Positions 1-41,085 of a DNA stretch of 41,135 bases are shown piece by piece (positions within the stretch are counted from its first letter, which is position 1; every line of letters begins with the position of its first letter). The stretch comes from a virus: the UHGV virus genome UHGV-0094207. One strand, given 5' to 3'. Position numbers and translations under genes: made by a program. Under the pieces are notes generated by a model. The model saw only the letters and a list, made by a program, of their open reading frames with translations, was not told where the DNA came from and did not search any database.

Positions 1-49
1 TACAGCGTGGTATTGCCCTCCACGCAGTTAACATGACGGGCGTTAGGGG

Positions 50-7622: not shown

Positions 7623-8249
7623 TTAAAGCTCGTACTGAACGCCTTTGACAACTCCAATGATCAGGCAATTACCGTTTATTGAAATGTTTGGATAGCGTGG
7701 ATTTAAGGGAACCAAGAACTTTTGAGGCCCATCGATGACGAGTTTTTTTACAGTAGCCTCGTTTGTCCCATCAAGTCTGGCTACGACTATCTTTCCATTA
7801 AGTGGCTCTGCATCAGGGTCCACTATGACTGTTGCCCCTTCAGGGATTGTCGGAAGACCATTAGGGTTTGTCATCGAATCACCTTTGACCTCCAATGCAA
7901 ATGAGCTATCACCTATCCTGAGTGATGTTTCTACCCACTTATCTACTTCACTGAAAACTTCTGCTGCTTTACATTCTGTAAACTGTCCAGCCTGAACCCA
8001 AGATATCACCGGAATCCTTCGCATCTTGGTTATCAGATTTCCTTCGAATTCAGTGCCATAGAGTATGTAATCAATTGATGTGTTGAAATACTTTGCAAGT
8101 TTCGAAAGTGACTCACCGCCTGGCACATTAATGTCTTTTTCCCAATACCCAACCGCCACATCGCTAACACCACAGAACTTACCCAGTTCTTTCTGCGAAG
8201 TTTTGGTTACGCGCCTGAGAGCTTTGATGCGCTGACCGACAGTTTCCAT
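7623..8249 (-). CDS. cI: CI-like prophage repressor (HTH plus S24 LexA-like peptidase)
   Basis: 208 aa. N-terminal HTH 'QKELGKFCGVSDVAVGYWEK'; Ala-Gly cleavage site in 'WVQAGQF'; catalytic 'KGDSM' and 'VKKL'. Confidence 0.85.
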   Translation of the reverse strand: METVGQRIKALRRVTKTSQKELGKFCGVSDVAVGYWEKDINVPGGESLSKLAKYFNTSIDYILYGTEFEGNLITKMRRIPVISWVQAGQFTECKAAEVFSEVDKWVETSLRIGDSSFALEVKGDSMTNPNGLPTIPEGATVIVDPDAEPLNGKIVVARLDGTNEATVKKLVIDGPQKFLVPLNPRYPNISINGNCLIIGVVKGVQYEL

Positions 8250-16494: not shown

Positions 16495-17952
16495 ATGCAG
16501 GTCACTATCGATGGTGTTCCATACGCGCCTGTCTGCAATTCGGTGTCACGCATAGGAATAGCAATCACAACGCATAATCGCCCTGACGTATTGAAGCGGA
16601 CACTGGCGCAGCATCATCAATTTTTACCGTCCGGCGCGCTCGTGGTTGTCATAGATGATGGTTCAAAACCTGCCGCAGTCGTTCCCGACGGCGTGCAGCT
16701 GCTTCGCAATGAAACATCCCTCGGCATTGTGGCCTCGAAAAACCGAAGCCTCGAAGCGCTGGTGGACGCCGGATGTGAGCATCTCTTCCTGTGGGATGAT
16801 GACGCATGGCCGGTTGCCGATAACTGGCACCTGCCTTACATCGAATCACCTGAGTCACACCTGGCTTACCAGTTTCTCGATCTGGCTGGTCCACGAAAGA
16901 TAAACGATATGACCGTCCTGCACCAGGATGATAAGCATATCGCTTACACCGGGCAGCGCGGTGTGATGCTGTACTACCACCGCAGCGCCATTGAGAAGGT
17001 TGGCGGATTCGATCCGGTATACGGTCGAGGCATGTATGAGCATCCTGATTTGGCGCTTCGGATTTATAACGCTGGCTTAACGTCCTGGGCGTTTGCTGAT
17101 GTGGTTGGCTCTGAAAAGCTGATTCACTCAATGGATGAATACGAAGAGGGCGCGCGCAGCATACCGAGGCCTGAACGTGAAGCGCTCTATAAAAAGAACG
17201 CTGTAATTTACGGGCAGCGCCGGGATTCAGGATATACAGGCTATGCCGAATATCGATCTCAGCGCGACGTGGTAATCACAACGTTGCTTACCAGCCAGCC
17301 AGACCCGCAGCGCGGTACGAAAATGGCGGCCGTATCAGACATGCTGACCAGGTGGGCTGCCTCGCTTCGGAATTGTGGCCGTATTGCGCTGGTGGATGAG
17401 CTGCAGACGGCATCGGCAGACGTTGAGTTGTATCGCGTCCCTGACGTGAAGATGAATGTCTACTTCCGGCGCTGGCTGCATATCTGGCAGCACCTGCGCG
17501 ATCACCCTGAATACCGGTTCGTCTGGTGTACCGATGGTACCGATGTCGAAATGCTCCGCGCACCGTGGGAAGAAATGCAGCCCGGGAATGTTTACGTCGG
17601 TTCTGAACCGAAGATCTACGCCGACACCTGGGCGAAACAGAATCATCCTGAGCGTATCTATCAGGAATTCATTGAAGCGCACCGCGGCGATGTGATGCTT
17701 AATGCTGGTCTTCTGGGAGGCACCCGCGCTGATGTGATGGCGTTCGCTCATGGCATCATCCGTCTTTACTACCGGATCGAGAGTTATCGTTTCTGGAAGA
17801 AAGAACAGGCTGGCGCAGCGGTGGGTGACATGCTGGCGTTCGGTATCGTTGCGCAGTCATTCGCTGACAGGTTGGTCACCGGCCCTCTGGTACATACCGT
17901 TTTCAAAACTGATGGTATCGGTAAGGAGGCAGCATGGTGGAAACACAAGTGA
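16495..17952 (+). CDS. Two-domain glycosyltransferase (N-terminal GT2/GT-A domain plus a second GT-A-like C-terminal domain)
   Basis: 485 aa. N-terminal 'GIAITTHNRPDVLKRTL...VVVIDDGS...LWDDDAWP...GGFDPVYGRGMYEHPDLALR' are GT2 hallmarks; C-terminal half has 'RFVWCTDGTDVEM'. Confidence 0.6.
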   Translation: MQVTIDGVPYAPVCNSVSRIGIAITTHNRPDVLKRTLAQHHQFLPSGALVVVIDDGSKPAAVVPDGVQLLRNETSLGIVASKNRSLEALVDAGCEHLFLWDDDAWPVADNWHLPYIESPESHLAYQFLDLAGPRKINDMTVLHQDDKHIAYTGQRGVMLYYHRSAIEKVGGFDPVYGRGMYEHPDLALRIYNAGLTSWAFADVVGSEKLIHSMDEYEEGARSIPRPEREALYKKNAVIYGQRRDSGYTGYAEYRSQRDVVITTLLTSQPDPQRGTKMAAVSDMLTRWAASLRNCGRIALVDELQTASADVELYRVPDVKMNVYFRRWLHIWQHLRDHPEYRFVWCTDGTDVEMLRAPWEEMQPGNVYVGSEPKIYADTWAKQNHPERIYQEFIEAHRGDVMLNAGLLGGTRADVMAFAHGIIRLYYRIESYRFWKKEQAGAAVGDMLAFGIVAQSFADRLVTGPLVHTVFKTDGIGKEAAWWKHK

Positions 17953-19031: not shown

Positions 19032-19529
19032 ATGTCTGGACCACCGAAAACCCCGACCCATCTACGTTTGGTGAGGGGTAACCCATCAAAACGCCCGATT
19101 AATGAAAACGAACCAAAGCCAGCTGCAGGGGTACCCCCAACGCCGAAGCATTTCGACAAGCAGGGAAAATACTGGTTCAAGCGTATGGCTGAAGAGCTCG
19201 ATGCGCTTGGCGTCATGTCGCAGCTGGACGCGAGAGCGCTTGAGCTTTTGGTTGAGGTTTACACCGAGTACCGGCATCACTGCGATACTCTGGAGAGAGA
19301 AGGCTATACCTACGCCGTATATAGCGACGAAGAACCAGACGAAGGCAAAGAGCGAGAGATTCGCATGATCAAGGCTCACCCGGCGGCCATCATGAAAGCT
19401 GATGCCTGGAAACGTCTTCGCGCCATGCTCGGAGAGTTCGGTATGACGCCAGCCAGCCGCTCTAAAGTGAATGCAAAAGGTCCTGATGCGGTTGACCCGC
19501 TGACCGAGTTTATGAAAGCGAGGGATTAA
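19032..19529 (+). CDS. Terminase small subunit (P27-family type)
   Basis: 165 aa immediately upstream of the large terminase; 'TPTHLRLVRGNPSKRP...' N-terminus. Confidence 0.75.
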   Translation: MSGPPKTPTHLRLVRGNPSKRPINENEPKPAAGVPPTPKHFDKQGKYWFKRMAEELDALGVMSQLDARALELLVEVYTEYRHHCDTLEREGYTYAVYSDEEPDEGKEREIRMIKAHPAAIMKADAWKRLRAMLGEFGMTPASRSKVNAKGPDAVDPLTEFMKARD

Positions 19530-21265
19530 TGGCTAAGGTTGCAGAAGGCATCCGCTACGCCGAGAGGGTGGTGGCGGGGGAAATTATTGCCTGTGAGTAT
19601 GTGCGCCTTGCCTGTCAGCGTTTTCTTGACGATCTGGCCCACGGCGAAGAGCGCGGTATTTTCTTCAGTGAGCCGCGCGCGCAGCACATTCTGAATTTCT
19701 ATAATTTTGTCCCTCACGTCAAAGGCGCGCTGGCAGGCCAGCCTATTGAGCTGATGGACTGGCATGTTTTCATCCTGATTAATATTTTTGGTTTTGTTAT
19801 CCCGCTGGTTAACGAAGATACGGGGGAAAACGTCCTGCGTAACGACGGCAGCGGTCGACCGGTGATGGTTCGGCGTTTCCGTACAGCAGATGTTGAGGTG
19901 GCCCGTAAAAATGCCAAATCAACGCTTTGCTCCGGCGTAGGGCTGTATATGGCTGGTGCCGACGGCGAGGGAGGGGCGGAGGTTTATTCCGCTGCTACAA
20001 CCCGTGACCAGGCGAGAATTGTTTTTGAAGACGCGAAAAATATGGTCAAGAAGGCGAAAGCCACTCTTGGGCGGATCTTCGAATTCAACAAGCTCGCTAT
20101 CTACCAGGAGCAAACGGCCTCCAAATTCGAGCCATTATCATCAGATGCAAACAACCTCGACGGCCTGAACATCCACTGCGCCATCGTTGACGAGCTGCAT
20201 GCTCATAAAACGCGTGACGTCTGGGACGTTCTGGAGACGGCCACCGGCGCGCGCCTGCAATCTCTGCTTTTCGGTATCACCACCGCTGGTTTCAACAAAG
20301 AAGGTATCTGTTACGAATTGCGTGATTACGCCATCAAGGTCCTGCGCGGCCTGGTTAAAGACGATACGTTTTTTGCCATCATCTACACCTTAGATGAAGG
20401 TGACGATCCATTTGATGAAAAAGTCTGGCAGAAGGCCAATCCGGGGCTGGGTATCTGTAAGCGCTGGGATGACTTGCGGCGTCTGGCAAAAAAAGCGAAA
20501 GAGCAGGTTTCGGCCAGGATTAACTTTTTCACCAAGCACATGAATATCTGGGTTACGGCAGAGTCTGCCTGGATGGACATGATGAAATGGGAGAAATGCG
20601 AGTTTATCGCCCCGCAGCACGAACTTAAAACCTATCCCTCCTGGGTGGGCGTTGACCTTTCAAACAAAATTGATATCTGTGCGGCCGCTAAAGTCTGGCG
20701 CGCGCCAGGTGGCCACGTTCACGCGGATTTTAAATTCTGGCTTCCGGAAGGACGCCTTGAGAAATGTTCACGCCAGATGGCAGAGCTCTATCGTAAGTGG
20801 GCTGAGCTGGACAAGCTGATCCTTACCGACGGGGATGTAATCGACCATGCTCAGATTAAGGAAGAGCTGCAGGTGTGGGTTGCTGGCGAGAATCTGAAAG
20901 AAATTGGCTTCGATCCCTGGAGTGCTACGCAGTTCAGCCTTGCGCTGGCAGAAGAAGGGTTGCCACTGGTGGAGGTGCCGCAGACGGTTCGCAATTTCTC
21001 TGAGGCGATGAAAGAGGTCGAAGCACTGGTATATGGTGGCCGCTTCCATCACAGCGATCACCCGGTAATGAACTGGATGATGTCCAACGTAACCGTCAAA
21101 CCTGACAGGAACGAGAATATTTTCCCGAACAAGTCCACACCAGAGGCCAAGATTGATGGCCCGGCGGCATTGTTCACAGCAATGAGCCGCGTTCTGGTTA
21201 ACGGTGGCAACGACCAGCAGGATCTTTCCGGATTCTTCAATAATCCCATCATGGTAGGTTTCTGA
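19529..21265 (+). CDS. Terminase large subunit
   Basis: 578 aa with ATPase and nuclease regions, followed by the portal gene. Confidence 0.9.
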   Translation: MAKVAEGIRYAERVVAGEIIACEYVRLACQRFLDDLAHGEERGIFFSEPRAQHILNFYNFVPHVKGALAGQPIELMDWHVFILINIFGFVIPLVNEDTGENVLRNDGSGRPVMVRRFRTADVEVARKNAKSTLCSGVGLYMAGADGEGGAEVYSAATTRDQARIVFEDAKNMVKKAKATLGRIFEFNKLAIYQEQTASKFEPLSSDANNLDGLNIHCAIVDELHAHKTRDVWDVLETATGARLQSLLFGITTAGFNKEGICYELRDYAIKVLRGLVKDDTFFAIIYTLDEGDDPFDEKVWQKANPGLGICKRWDDLRRLAKKAKEQVSARINFFTKHMNIWVTAESAWMDMMKWEKCEFIAPQHELKTYPSWVGVDLSNKIDICAAAKVWRAPGGHVHADFKFWLPEGRLEKCSRQMAELYRKWAELDKLILTDGDVIDHAQIKEELQVWVAGENLKEIGFDPWSATQFSLALAEEGLPLVEVPQTVRNFSEAMKEVEALVYGGRFHHSDHPVMNWMMSNVTVKPDRNENIFPNKSTPEAKIDGPAALFTAMSRVLVNGGNDQQDLSGFFNNPIMVGF

Positions 21266-38240: not shown

Positions 38241-39335
38241 ATGTCAGCAGGAACCTTAACCCTGACGAATAACTCTGCTGCGGTCGCTGGCAGCGGGACC
38301 GCGTTTACCACCGAGGTGGCAGCCGGAGATTTTATTGTTGTTACTGTCGGTGGCATTCCCTACACGCTCCCGGTTAAATCTGTGGAAAGTGGTACAGCGT
38401 TGACGCTGGTCAGTAACTTTACCGGGCCAACACAATCTGGCGCGGCCTGGTCAGCTGTTCCTCGTGTGGCGCTGAATATGGTCACCGCGGCGCTGGTGGC
38501 GCAAAGTGCTGAAGCGCTGCGAGGCCTGAATTACGACAAACAGAACTGGCAGCAGGTTTACAGTGGTGCTGGCAGCATCACCGTGAAGTTACCGGATGGC
38601 ACTACATTCACCGGGCCGTCATGGAAATATCTTTCTGACAACCTCGCGGATAAAGTAGACAGCAAAGATCCCCAACTAGGTACTGTGAATGGGAAAACAG
38701 GCGGAACCATTTCCACCCCAGTTTATAGCGTTGGAGCTAGTGGGGTAGTAACTCAGGACTCAAGTTATGGTGAGTGGTCATTTCTTTATCCATCCACTTT
38801 AAAAAAGATGGCCTACGGATTTTGTGAGAATTTTGGTGATCTGGTTTTTGTAACTACCGTTGCAACAAATACCGGGACAGAAAAATATTTTGCTATGCGT
38901 CAGAACGGTAATTTCAATACACAAGGAAATATTACCTGCGTCTCGCTGACCCAGACTTCAGATGCCGATAAAAAAAACGACATAAAACCCATTGAAGACG
39001 CACTTGGTAAAGTGATGGCTCTAAACGGTGTAACCTTCAACTGGAAGGACAGCGGCCTGCCATCTTCCGGTGTGATTGCCCAGGAGCTTATAAAAGTCCT
39101 GCCGGAGGCTGTCGGATCAGTCTTTGAAGATCATGATCAGTATGAGTCTGTTGAAGAAATCAATGCGGGCGGCGAGACGACAATCACCCGTCATCTTGTT
39201 AAAAAACGAGATGACAGCAAGCGTAGCTATACGGTGGAATATTCTGGCGTCGTTGCACTCTGTCTTCAGGCAATAAAAGAATTGAATGAAAAAGTTGACA
39301 GTTTGCTGGAACAGTCATCTGCCGTTAAAAATTGA
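38241..39335 (+). CDS. Tail fibre protein with C-terminal S74-type intramolecular chaperone domain
   Basis: 364 aa; N-terminal 'MSAGTLTLTNNSAAVAGSGTAFTT' fibre-type start; C-terminal 'DIKPIEDALGKVMALNGVTFNWKD' chaperone-like segment; GC drops in the distal half. Confidence 0.65.
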   Translation: MSAGTLTLTNNSAAVAGSGTAFTTEVAAGDFIVVTVGGIPYTLPVKSVESGTALTLVSNFTGPTQSGAAWSAVPRVALNMVTAALVAQSAEALRGLNYDKQNWQQVYSGAGSITVKLPDGTTFTGPSWKYLSDNLADKVDSKDPQLGTVNGKTGGTISTPVYSVGASGVVTQDSSYGEWSFLYPSTLKKMAYGFCENFGDLVFVTTVATNTGTEKYFAMRQNGNFNTQGNITCVSLTQTSDADKKNDIKPIEDALGKVMALNGVTFNWKDSGLPSSGVIAQELIKVLPEAVGSVFEDHDQYESVEEINAGGETTITRHLVKKRDDSKRSYTVEYSGVVALCLQAIKELNEKVDSLLEQSSAVKN

Positions 39336-39463
39336 TAGTTGCCGCAACCACACCGTATGCAAGAGCATGATTGCGGCCGACTGGCGAACGTTCGATAGTG
39401 CGAGTATTGAATGATTGCCAGTCACGGCGGATTGTACTTAAGCAATATGACGGTTCAAGGCGT

Positions 39464-39706
39464 TTAATCTGAAACCAGCCACATATCAGCCTCTTCAAAC
39501 ATTTCCTGAACAGTACGGCTTATCTGCTCCTTCTCATGCTTGCTGGCGTCAGTGTTGATCGCTGGCAGTGTCATCATCGGTTTAACCCGGACATCAGCAT
39601 CGGGGAAGATCCGGTGAACCCTCCTGGTCAATTCGCCCAGAATGATATCTTTTGCACGGGGCAGACCATCAAAATTCCTTTTGTCATAAACGAGTTCCAC
39701 GAACAT
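39464..39706 (-). CDS. dinI: DinI-family DNA-damage-inducible protein
   Basis: 80 aa; 'GELTRRVHRIFPD' and 'EKEQISRTVQEMFEEADMWLVSD' align with DinI as recalled. Confidence 0.8.
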   Translation of the reverse strand: MFVELVYDKRNFDGLPRAKDIILGELTRRVHRIFPDADVRVKPMMTLPAINTDASKHEKEQISRTVQEMFEEADMWLVSD

Positions 39707-39721
39707 TGCTTATTGCCTCTT

Positions 39722-39770
39722 TACTGGATGGATATACAGTATTTATACTGTGTTTTTATGCGGTATTCAA
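39722..39770 (-). promoter_or_regulatory. SOS promoter with LexA box upstream of dinI
   Basis: On the minus strand: TTGAAT (39765-39770), 17 nt, TATAAA (39742-39747), then TACTGTATATCCATCCAGTA (39722-39741), i.e. CTGT-N8-CCAG. Confidence 0.55.
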
Positions 39771-39781
39771 GAGAGGGCGTG

Positions 39782-40024
39782 ATGATGCCACGACGCAGCG
39801 ATATTGAAATAGCCTGGTATGCTTCGATACAGCAGGAACCAAATGGCCGGAAGACCGTCACCACGCAACGGTTTGTCCAGGAACTGAGCAAGGTTAACTG
39901 GAACTGGACAATGAAGCAGGCCAACGAATGGATCGAGTGGTATGTGACAACCTTCCGCGATGTATCAACGCAGGAAGGGGAGAACCGTACCTTTCAGCTG
40001 TTCAATCCAAACGGAGGACTATAG
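39782..40024 (+). CDS. Hypothetical protein, first gene of the divergent SOS operon
   Basis: 81 aa; purine-rich RBS before 'MMPRRSD'; stop 2 nt before the UmuD'-like start. Confidence 0.45.
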   Translation: MMPRRSDIEIAWYASIQQEPNGRKTVTTQRFVQELSKVNWNWTMKQANEWIEWYVTTFRDVSTQEGENRTFQLFNPNGGL

Positions 40025-40026
40025 CC

Positions 40027-40416
40027 ATGGGCTTCCCTTCACCTGCCAGTGATTACGTTGAAACAAGGATCTCCCTCGATCAGCAGCTAATCAGCCAGTC
40101 CGCAGCGACTTATTTCATGCGGGCATCGCGTTCACATTTCAGGGAAGGGATAATCCAGGGGGCGCTGCTTGTTGTTGATGCGTCACTTTCTCCCTGTGAT
40201 GGCTCGCTGCTGATATGCGCGATAGACGGAGAATTCAGGATCAAGCGATATCGGACTCATCCTCAGCCCCACCTGGTTAATCTGGAGAACGGGAGAAGGG
40301 AGGCGCTGCCAGCAGATGATGACGGTTACAGTTCTGCACCCGCTATATTCGGGGTGATCACGTACATCATTAATGATGCCAGGAACGCGGAGTTTGATGA
40401 CTGCCCGGTGATGTAA
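40027..40416 (+). CDS. UmuD'-like S24-family protein lacking the N-terminal pro-segment
   Basis: Starts 'MGFPSPASDYVETRISLDQQLI', which matches UmuD directly after its Cys24-Gly25 cleavage site; conserved Lys in 'GEFRIKRY'; the Ser-region is altered ('ASRSHF'). Confidence 0.65.
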   Translation: MGFPSPASDYVETRISLDQQLISQSAATYFMRASRSHFREGIIQGALLVVDASLSPCDGSLLICAIDGEFRIKRYRTHPQPHLVNLENGRREALPADDDGYSSAPAIFGVITYIINDARNAEFDDCPVM

Positions 40417-41085
40417 TCATATTGGCTGTATTAGTTCGGAGCCCTGATGTTTCACATTCCCGACGGCACGCGTCACGGCATGCCATATAAATTTATCAGC
40501 CGGCACGGAACCGTCGGCTGCAATTTCCGCCGCTTCTTTCCCTCCAATGTCCTGCCTCATCCATTCTCGAGCAGCATCTGGTGACAGTACCAGTGGCCGC
40601 CTATCGTGAATATCTACCAGTCCTTTGTCTGCAGCAGCCGTCACTATCAGGAATCCTTCTGCTTCATCTCCACGTTCGAATGGTGTGCTGCCGATCGCCG
40701 CCATGAATATCGGCTGGCCATCGGCTCGATGAATGAAGTAGGGCTGCTTTTTGTCACCTTCCTTTTTCCATTCATACCAGCCATCAGCAAAGCAAATGGC
40801 ACGACCATGCTGCCAGAGTGGTTTGAACATTCTGCTGGTGGCCGCAGTTTCAGAGCGTGCGTTAATTAGCGGTGGTTTATCCCACCATCCGGGGGCGTAT
40901 CCCCAGATAACTGGATCAAGATGGAGTTTCTCGTCACGTTCGCTCAGAAGCAGAACTTTGGTGCCTGGCGCGACATTAAAACGTCCGATCGGTTCGGGAT
41001 CGTAAGGGATATCGCGTTCTGCTTCTTCAGTAAGCAGAGCGAGATAGTCTTCACGCGTCATTGATTGTGAAAAGCGTCCACACAT
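40417..41085 (-). CDS. yedK: SRAP-family protein (YedK-like abasic-site processing protein)
   Basis: 222 aa starting 'MCGRF' (catalytic Cys2 hallmark of SRAP/YedK); stop codon directly abuts the UmuD'-like stop. Confidence 0.8.
   Translation of the reverse strand: MCGRFSQSMTREDYLALLTEEAERDIPYDPEPIGRFNVAPGTKVLLLSERDEKLHLDPVIWGYAPGWWDKPPLINARSETAATSRMFKPLWQHGRAICFADGWYEWKKEGDKKQPYFIHRADGQPIFMAAIGSTPFERGDEAEGFLIVTAAADKGLVDIHDRRPLVLSPDAAREWMRQDIGGKEAAEIAADGSVPADKFIWHAVTRAVGNVKHQGSELIQPI

Follow-up and report, generated by a model that had tools for sequence, protein, structure and literature searches.

A probable prophage cargo block joining dinI and orf80-humD genes under predicted LexA control to a YedK-like SRAP gene at the edge of a lambdoid Citrobacter prophage

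Results

Four DNA-damage-related genes lie at the tail-fibre end of the prophage

The window analysed here, a stretch of 41,135 nucleotides of viral DNA (UHGV virus genome UHGV-0094207), is a complete-looking lambdoid Citrobacter prophage, and its final 1.7 kb, at the tail-fibre/attR end, holds a dinI-like gene, a small gene that we call orf80, the gene humD for a UmuD'-like protein, and a gene of the SRAP family resembling E. coli yedK (Table 1). We consider it likely that these genes form a recurrent enterobacterial prophage cargo block, in which dinI and orf80-humD are controlled by LexA and to which the SRAP gene is added. What was directly observed, and what this reading is built on, are the gene identities and their arrangement, the operator with its statistics and its conservation, and the prophage boundaries. 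A preliminary description of the window had announced an SOS cargo module at this place, and all of its elements were found at, or within a few bases of, the positions it had given. Judged from the sequence, the term suits the dinI and orf80-humD genes, which appear to share a LexA box. It fits the SRAP gene by gene content only, because no LexA box precedes this gene and because it is also carried apart from the others, with the att/int module.

The dinI and orf80-humD genes diverge from a near-consensus LexA box

The dinI-like gene and the orf80-humD operon diverge from a 75-bp region that contains a LexA box (TACTGGATGGATATACAGTA, box 1). This site has what is expected of an operator of the LexA regulon, that is a 20-bp palindrome of the CTG-N10-CAG type with an AT-rich centre that overlaps a predicted promoter. 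It differs from the perfect 20-mer palindrome at three positions, is the sole match with three or fewer mismatches in the window, and had no equivalent in 100 shuffles. A position weight matrix (PWM) built from twenty E. coli LexA boxes gave it 24.6 bits, near the top of the training range, compared with a median best score of 11.9 bits in shuffled windows; as an independent check, the same PWM scored the LexA site annotated in the phage P1 record at 23.9 bits. The dinI ATG is 15 nt and the orf80 start 40-43 nt away from box 1, which is conserved in Citrobacter and E. coli relatives. The near-consensus box that had been noticed at the dinI promoter, about 40 bp from orf80, is this site, and it is statistically unique in the window.

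Box 1 spans the -35 hexamer and the spacer of the promoter predicted for orf80-humD, and begins immediately after the -10 hexamer of the one predicted for dinI. The latter was read by eye, as the promoter scan demands a T at position 6 of the -10 hexamer and left it unlisted. Since the two -10 hexamers overlap, one LexA dimer could plausibly block both promoters. The earlier suggestion that a single operator may serve both transcripts agrees with this arrangement, for which the P1 record and phage HK140 offer precedents.

A second, degenerate box (TACTGTGTTTTTATGCGGTA, box 2) scores 12.8 bits, which is about chance level for the window. The same position scores 20.2 bits in E. coli fEC.1 and 16.9 bits in C. 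braakii and C. portucalensis. As close relatives have two tandem boxes, this was the ancestral state in this lineage, and the orf80-proximal box is decaying here.

HumD corresponds to an already processed UmuD'

The product of humD matches the NCBIfam HumD equivalog model NF051876 with 223.5 bits, against a cut-off of 120, over positions 1-129 of 129; its length is thus 129 amino acids, not 130 as first given. It is 70.5% identical to HumD of P1 from end to end, 66-70% identical to the homologues of N15, phiKO2 and HK140, and 38% identical to residues 25-139 of E. coli UmuD. The protein starts with M-GFPSPA and its Gly2 aligned to UmuD Gly25, in K-12 UmuD as in the full-length UmuD of PDB 8gmt_B. 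It has neither the N-terminal arm nor the Cys24-Gly25 cleavage site. The preliminary description had placed the start of the protein right after the UmuD cleavage site, and the alignments with UmuD and P1 HumD bear this out. The LexA operator expected of the HumD family is represented, at the sequence level, by box 1, and equivalent boxes lie upstream of humD in P1 and N15. Within the family, the position of UmuD Ser60 is variable (S, T, A, E or Y) and Lys97 is often replaced by Arg, which fits proteins that no longer cleave themselves.

The Shine-Dalgarno sequence of humD, GGAGGA, lies within the last codons of orf80, and 2 nt separate the orf80 stop from humD. A longer HumD reading frame of 162 amino acids from position 39928 was rejected, as it is an out-of-frame overlap of the conserved orf80 frame; moreover, the HumD model has 129 positions, all of which are matched from the first, and the homologues all start with MGF.SPA behind GGAGG. 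No umuC was found in the window by tblastn with two UmuC proteins (best E value 0.36), in line with the previous remark that the UmuD'-like protein has no umuC partner there. The title of McLenigan et al. (1999, J Bacteriol 181:7005), as listed in PMC11541004, states that P1 HumD facilitates E. coli SOS mutagenesis.

A second, shorter class of proteins of 104-107 amino acids also starts with MGFPSPA and is always found behind orf80 and a LexA box (L016, L019, L027, L031, L046 and other loci). The region around UmuD Ser60 is missing from these proteins, and Lys97 is not conserved.

The dinI-like gene and the SRAP gene

The dinI-like protein matches the Pfam DinI family with 73.6 bits (gathering threshold 24.2) and belongs to PHROG 189, "RecA filament binding protein DinI". 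Its alignment to E. coli DinI (1GHH) includes the acidic C-terminal helix, EEADMWLVSD facing ESADDWFVSE. With the NCBIfam DinI equivalog NF007893 it reaches 39.3 bits, below the cut-off of 111, and by these scores the gene is a prophage DinI-like paralogue rather than an orthologue of the chromosomal DinI. Such genes are known from the Gifsy prophages (Lemire et al. 2011, PMC3121763; Merida-Floriano et al. 2021, PMC8072944), which share with the window a LexA box 15-19 nt from the dinI ATG. The LexA-boxed dinI homologues of Gifsy-1, -2 and -3, with the box 19 bp from the ATG, were identified as genes up-regulated by nalidixic acid (PMC8072944), and the DinI protein of the Gifsy-2 homologue accumulates after mitomycin C (PMC3121763). 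In the Gifsy prophages, however, an antirepressor gene and irsA come after dinI, and the locus lies downstream of the replication genes, whereas dinI of the window would be alone on its transcript, at the tail end, in a prophage whose repressor is predicted to cleave itself. The region 3' of dinI (39336-39470) was considered for a small open reading frame or a structured RNA and rejected, its fold z-score of -1.16 being unremarkable.

The SRAP protein matches Pfam PF02586 (1.6e-51; 175.3 bits, cut-off 27.1) and NCBIfam PRK09951 (466.4 bits, cut-off 349), and is 88% identical to K-12 YedK in an alignment free of gaps over 222 residues. It keeps Cys2, Asn75, Arg77, Glu105, His160 and Arg162 at their YedK positions. 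In structural work on YedK, Cys2, Asn75, Glu105 and His160 are reported to have a catalytic role. The gene is convergent with humD and the stops abut exactly as had been read before (TAATCA): the humD stop TAA (40414-40416) is directly followed by TCA (40417-40419), the minus-strand stop of the SRAP gene. No terminator is predicted between the two genes. Given this convergence, the zero gap and the lack of a predicted terminator, humD transcripts made under SOS induction should extend antisense across the SRAP gene, and such transcription could interfere with that of the SRAP gene. No LexA box was found upstream of the SRAP genes at the E. coli 1943, fEC.1 and K-12 yedK loci.

A model for the block and the points that weigh against it

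In the lysogen, the host LexA would sit on box 1, over two promoters that face each other, and keep both strands repressed, the dinI-like gene on the one and orf80-humD, coupled in translation, on the other. DNA damage would lead to RecA-stimulated self-cleavage of LexA and thereby release both transcripts. The DinI-like protein would then bind RecA filaments and tune their co-protease activity. HumD, made without the arm and the cleavage site, would need no RecA-mediated processing and could pair with a host UmuC to give a Pol V-type translesion polymerase. The SRAP protein would use Cys2 to form cross-links with abasic sites of single-stranded DNA and so shield them, being driven by its own LexA-independent promoter region, which would also be the integrase arm of attP. 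In this scheme orf80 would be an optional add-on to humD with a winged-helix-like fold.

Several points weigh against this model. LexA binding and induction by damage, like all the biochemical activities, are what we infer from the sequence. Both promoters are weak matches to the consensus, and promoter-like sites are no commoner in the region than in shuffles. With box 2 decayed, box 1 would have to reach across for orf80-humD to be repressed. Nothing indicates SOS control of the SRAP gene, as the 320 nt upstream of it contain no LexA box (best score -1.7 bits). The activity of a DinI-like protein below the equivalog cut-off may differ from that of E. coli DinI, and HumD would have no partner if the Citrobacter host lacks umuC. 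Finally, the residue of HumD at the position of the catalytic Ser60 is ambiguous, His according to phmmer and Ser according to MAFFT, which is to be expected because HumD no longer cleaves itself.

A prophage that delivers a ready-made UmuD', a RecA modulator and a shield for abasic sites can alter the mutation and survival of its lysogens under DNA-damaging antibiotics, which is of relevance to how Citrobacter, E. coli and Klebsiella mutate and persist. The block itself is another copy of catalogued parts known from P1, HK140 and E. coli. The part worth bench work is orf80, since it is conserved, has a LexA box in nearly every locus, is tied to a pre-processed UmuD' and is mislabelled as "DNA polymerase V"; the weight of the finding would rise only if orf80 were a real accessory of Pol V or HumD.

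The block recurs in other prophages and resembles known systems

In E. coli fEC.1, dinI, orf80, humD and the SRAP gene are found with an identical humD/SRAP junction, at the icd (e14) site and with a different tail module. At least 80% of a 1.8-kb query was present in 8 of 5426 complete E. coli genomes. In E. coli strain 1943 the SRAP gene and the same att arm occur with neither dinI nor humD, and in the record of phage PHB10 an SRAP gene adjoins int. We also compared the 80 closest IMG/VR loci (L064-L143). In nearly all of them dinI diverges from humD; the SRAP gene is present in 18 and abuts the humD stop exactly in 11 of these. The four genes are thus mosaic pieces that can be exchanged separately and that recur as a group. 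In more than 20 IMG/VR prophage contigs the end comes exactly 3 nt past the humD stop. This points either to humD as the final gene ahead of attR in those phages, as in HK140, or to a cut made there by the boundary caller.

One of the closest known systems is gp26-gp28 of phage HK140 (NC_019710), where a tail fibre gene, DinI (minus), a 79-amino-acid open reading frame (plus), a UmuD-like gene (plus) and attP follow each other in the same order, orientation and position. The identities to the proteins of the window are 62% for DinI, 70% for HumD and 39% for the small open reading frame. A LexA box lies between the divergent genes here too, a single one, whereas the window has one good and one decayed box. 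Unlike the window, HK140 has no SRAP gene, and its attP overlaps the 3' end of humD. Phage P1 (AF234172) shares the 129-amino-acid pre-processed UmuD' homologue and has no phage umuC, and its record annotates one LexA site "in the regulatory region of lxr and humD", a divergent pair. However, the divergent partner is lxr instead of dinI, orf80 is missing, the box is 20 nt from the humD ATG, phd-doc and not an SRAP gene follows humD, and the prophage is a plasmid, not an integrated lambdoid element.

K-12 YedK (b1931; PDB 2ICU, 6KBS, 6NUA) has the protein identity and key residues described above, and the similarity extends about 38 nt upstream of the start. At the DNA level, by contrast, the identity is 76%, and yedK is flanked by yedF and yedL, with neither dinI nor humD beside it, whereas the SRAP gene of the window, convergent with humD, comes last in a prophage that appears complete, with genes from integrase to tail and both att cores. 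The K-12 yedK locus (L061, 2009821-2010489) lies 2 kb from intG, annotated as a remnant of "cryptic prophage PR-G", and K-12 yedK may itself be prophage-derived. The occurrence of SRAP genes beside UmuD-family genes and in temperate phages was described by Aravind, Anand and Iyer (2013, PMC3765255) in the paper that named the family. That survey counted operon-like neighbourhoods on the same strand, whereas the SRAP gene of the window is convergent, without a LexA box and linked to att/int at least as much.

The block is thus a further member of catalogued kinds, namely HumD, prophage DinI, SRAP of the YedK type and LexA operators between divergent genes. Its parts are catalogued in databases, and we found no paper on the exact four-gene combination.

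orf80 is an optional companion of humD

The only uncharacterised part of the block is orf80, for which a structure model suggests a winged-helix-like fold. Its start is more likely the ATG at 39785, giving 79 amino acids as in most homologues. The protein had no match in Pfam, NCBIfam or PADLOC and falls in PHROG 3893, where no function is assigned. It was also considered as a DinI/ImpC-like third gene of an imp-type operon, and rejected for want of a DinI match. A profile search of 1.84 billion representative proteins gave only 177 relatives, almost all stand-alone, with at most 130 amino acids; the family is found in Enterobacterales only.

The gene context was surveyed in 43 species-level loci of Enterobacteriaceae and Erwiniaceae. 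The gene that follows orf80 starts with MGF.SPA at -1 to +4 nt in 30 of the 43, with products of 125-129 or 104-107 amino acids. Two Pantoea loci (L044 3501-5002, L052 3501-3973) have orf80 translationally coupled straight to umuC, with no umuD-like gene between. A strong LexA box was present 9-40 nt upstream of orf80 in 42 of 45 loci examined, the exceptions being truncated loci. The upstream neighbours are mostly tail-fibre, tail-assembly and Cor-like genes, which points to a prophage context. Apparent in-frame fusions join orf80 to HumD (P0152, P0187, P0260) or to the N-terminus of UmuC (P0167), and at least one other long form (P0241) is a frameshift artefact. orf80 is cleanly absent from 36 of the 80 closest IMG/VR loci (about 45%), where humD keeps the same ribosome-binding site and lies 78 nt from dinI (for instance L102 2420-2510); it is also absent from P1 and N15. 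It is therefore a 242-nt presence/absence polymorphism in otherwise near-identical modules.

In our reading, orf80 is attached to humD as an accessory or a regulator and is optional. Our tentative proposal, which we hold as a possibility well short of a probability, is that it represents an SOS-regulon family (about 79 amino acids, Enterobacterales only) acting as a dedicated accessory or modulator of HumD/Pol V, whose conserved C-terminal tail TF(Q/M)(L/V)(F/Y)NPNGG might replace the N-terminal arm of UmuD.

It is less likely that orf80 is no translesion-synthesis factor but a LexA-controlled phage regulator, a small antirepressor or transcription factor like GfoA/GftA of Gifsy or AntC of N15, that merely shares the humD promoter. 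Small LexA-controlled Gifsy proteins encoded beside dinI are indeed trans-acting antirepressors (PMC3121763), the modelled winged-helix-like fold would be typical of DNA-binding regulators, and humD does without orf80 in the loci that lack it, P1 and N15 included. But the CI repressor of the window is of the self-cleaving type with helix-turn-helix and S24 domains, the gene is regularly coupled to an MGF.SPA gene or, in the two Pantoea loci, to umuC, and apparent in-frame fusions to HumD and UmuC exist. Moreover, the Pfam, NCBIfam, PHROG and PADLOC searches showed no sequence similarity to described regulator families.

In UmuD, TFPLF is a clamp-binding motif. This bears on another improbable reading, that orf80 and humD are a UmuD/LexA-like gene split at the cleavage site, with orf80 supplying the TFxLF arm in trans and modulating HumD/Pol V through clamp binding, stability or timing. 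The C-terminus of orf80 reads RTFQLFNPNGGL and is followed, after 2 nt, by M-GFPSPA, and K-12 UmuD reads VTFPLFSDLVQC|GFPSPA, with T, F, L and F at equal distances from the boundary. The end-anchored score of this comparison, which was chosen post hoc, had a shuffle p of about 0.006. The C-terminal motif is also the most conserved part of the orf80 family, the order of a modelled winged helix and then an S24 domain would mirror that of LexA, fused forms exist and the two genes are tightly coupled in translation. However, the distance that follows the TF.LF motif differs between family members (4 to 7 residues), and TFQL forms a beta strand of a folded domain in the structure model, not a free arm. 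The fusions are rare, with at least one long form visibly an artefact and none among the 150 closest homologues, and orf80 is optional. We take the split of UmuD as a lead, not as a result, and keep to the reading of orf80 as an optional companion of humD.

In E. coli fEC.1 (L001 8423-9060), PGAP calls orf80-humD one "frameshifted S24 family peptidase" pseudogene with a fragment on the opposite strand, and orf80 homologues are labelled "DNA polymerase V" in databases, evidently by association; we read both as annotation artefacts of the gene pair. The stretch 39797-39864, which encodes about 25 N-terminal residues of orf80, is about 95% identical to stretches of "tail fiber assembly protein" genes of the E. 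coli phages 2G7b, ev243, PhiR29 and Turner and also matches database proteins that contain PF02413. It is probably a recombination scar or mosaic joint.

The prophage ends with the SRAP gene

Integration took place in yecE, 95 bp from the 5' end of that gene. An 11-bp core, TTAACTGCGTG, is common to the int/yecE junction and to the junction of yecE' with the region upstream of the SRAP gene. The window holds a single copy, next to int, and none near the humD/SRAP junction; the attR copy lies outside, about 230 nt past the SRAP start and about 180 nt past the right end of the window. Arm repeats of the TGCCCCATA type are found on both sides of the core, including the SRAP upstream region. In contigs with the identical SRAP protein, yecD and the 5' 95 bp of yecE are found about 230 bp past the SRAP start codon, and contigs with the identical integrase carry the remainder of yecE directly after int. 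Because the SRAP gene lies between the att cores, with arm repeats in its upstream region, it is the last prophage gene. Its promoter region appears to double as the integrase arm of attP.

It is thus very unlikely that the SRAP gene is host DNA or the remnant of an older element adjoining the prophage. This had seemed conceivable since the prophage call behind the window extends no more than 50 nt past the SRAP start, many prophage calls in IMG/VR have their end exactly at the humD stop, attP of HK140 overlaps the 3' end of humD, which would allow a boundary there, and E. coli 1943 has the same SRAP gene and upstream DNA beside yecD, behind an unrelated tail module and with no dinI or humD. 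The mapping of cores and arms, with yecE bracketing the whole segment, and the recurrence of the humD/SRAP junction at icd in fEC.1 speak against a host origin, and settle for the phage a question that the preliminary description had left between host and prophage.

Table 1. Features of the cargo block and of the surrounding prophage (positions in the window unless a locus is named)
Feature	Position	Strand	Remarks
dinI-like gene, 80 amino acids	39464-39706	minus	Pfam PF06183 DinI, 1.6e-20
LexA box 1, TACTGGATGGATATACAGTA	39722-39741		minus strand reads CTGT-N8-CCAG
Degenerate LexA box 2, TACTGTGTTTTTATGCGGTA	39746-39765		CAG half decayed to CGG; four bases past box 1
Predicted sigma-70 promoter of orf80-humD, TTTACT-18-TATACT	39720-39749	plus	consensus scan, 9/12 matches
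Predicted dinI promoter, TTGAAT-17-TATAAA	39742-39770	minus	putative, read by eye
orf80, 80 amino acids	39782-40024	plus	first gene of the predicted LexA-controlled operon
humD, 129 amino acids	40027-40416	plus	pre-processed UmuD'-like; NCBIfam NF051876
SRAP/YedK-like gene, 222 amino acids	40417-41085	minus	convergent with humD, zero intergenic bases
attL core, TTAACTGCGTG	21-31	minus	11-bp direct repeat; prophage boundary inside yecE
att core copies	window 21-31; L003 9760-9770; L057 5333-5343
Integrase	50-1363	minus
CI-type repressor	7623-8249		helix-turn-helix and S24 domains; followed by CII, Dam and Q
Tape-measure, L, K, I and J tail genes	after Q		gene table
Tail fibre	38241-39335		S74 chaperone domain (Pfam)

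Judged by its domains, the CI repressor would be of the self-cleaving type, so that the prophage could be induced without an antirepressor. The four cargo proteins gave no match when searched with PADLOC for defence systems. Further inside the prophage, the open reading frames at 19032-21265 were taken as terminase from their position only. Between them and Q, an open reading frame of 485 amino acids (16495-17952) has as its sole match a weak one to glycosyltransferase family 2 (E value 5.8e-4, below the cut-off) and may be a moron.

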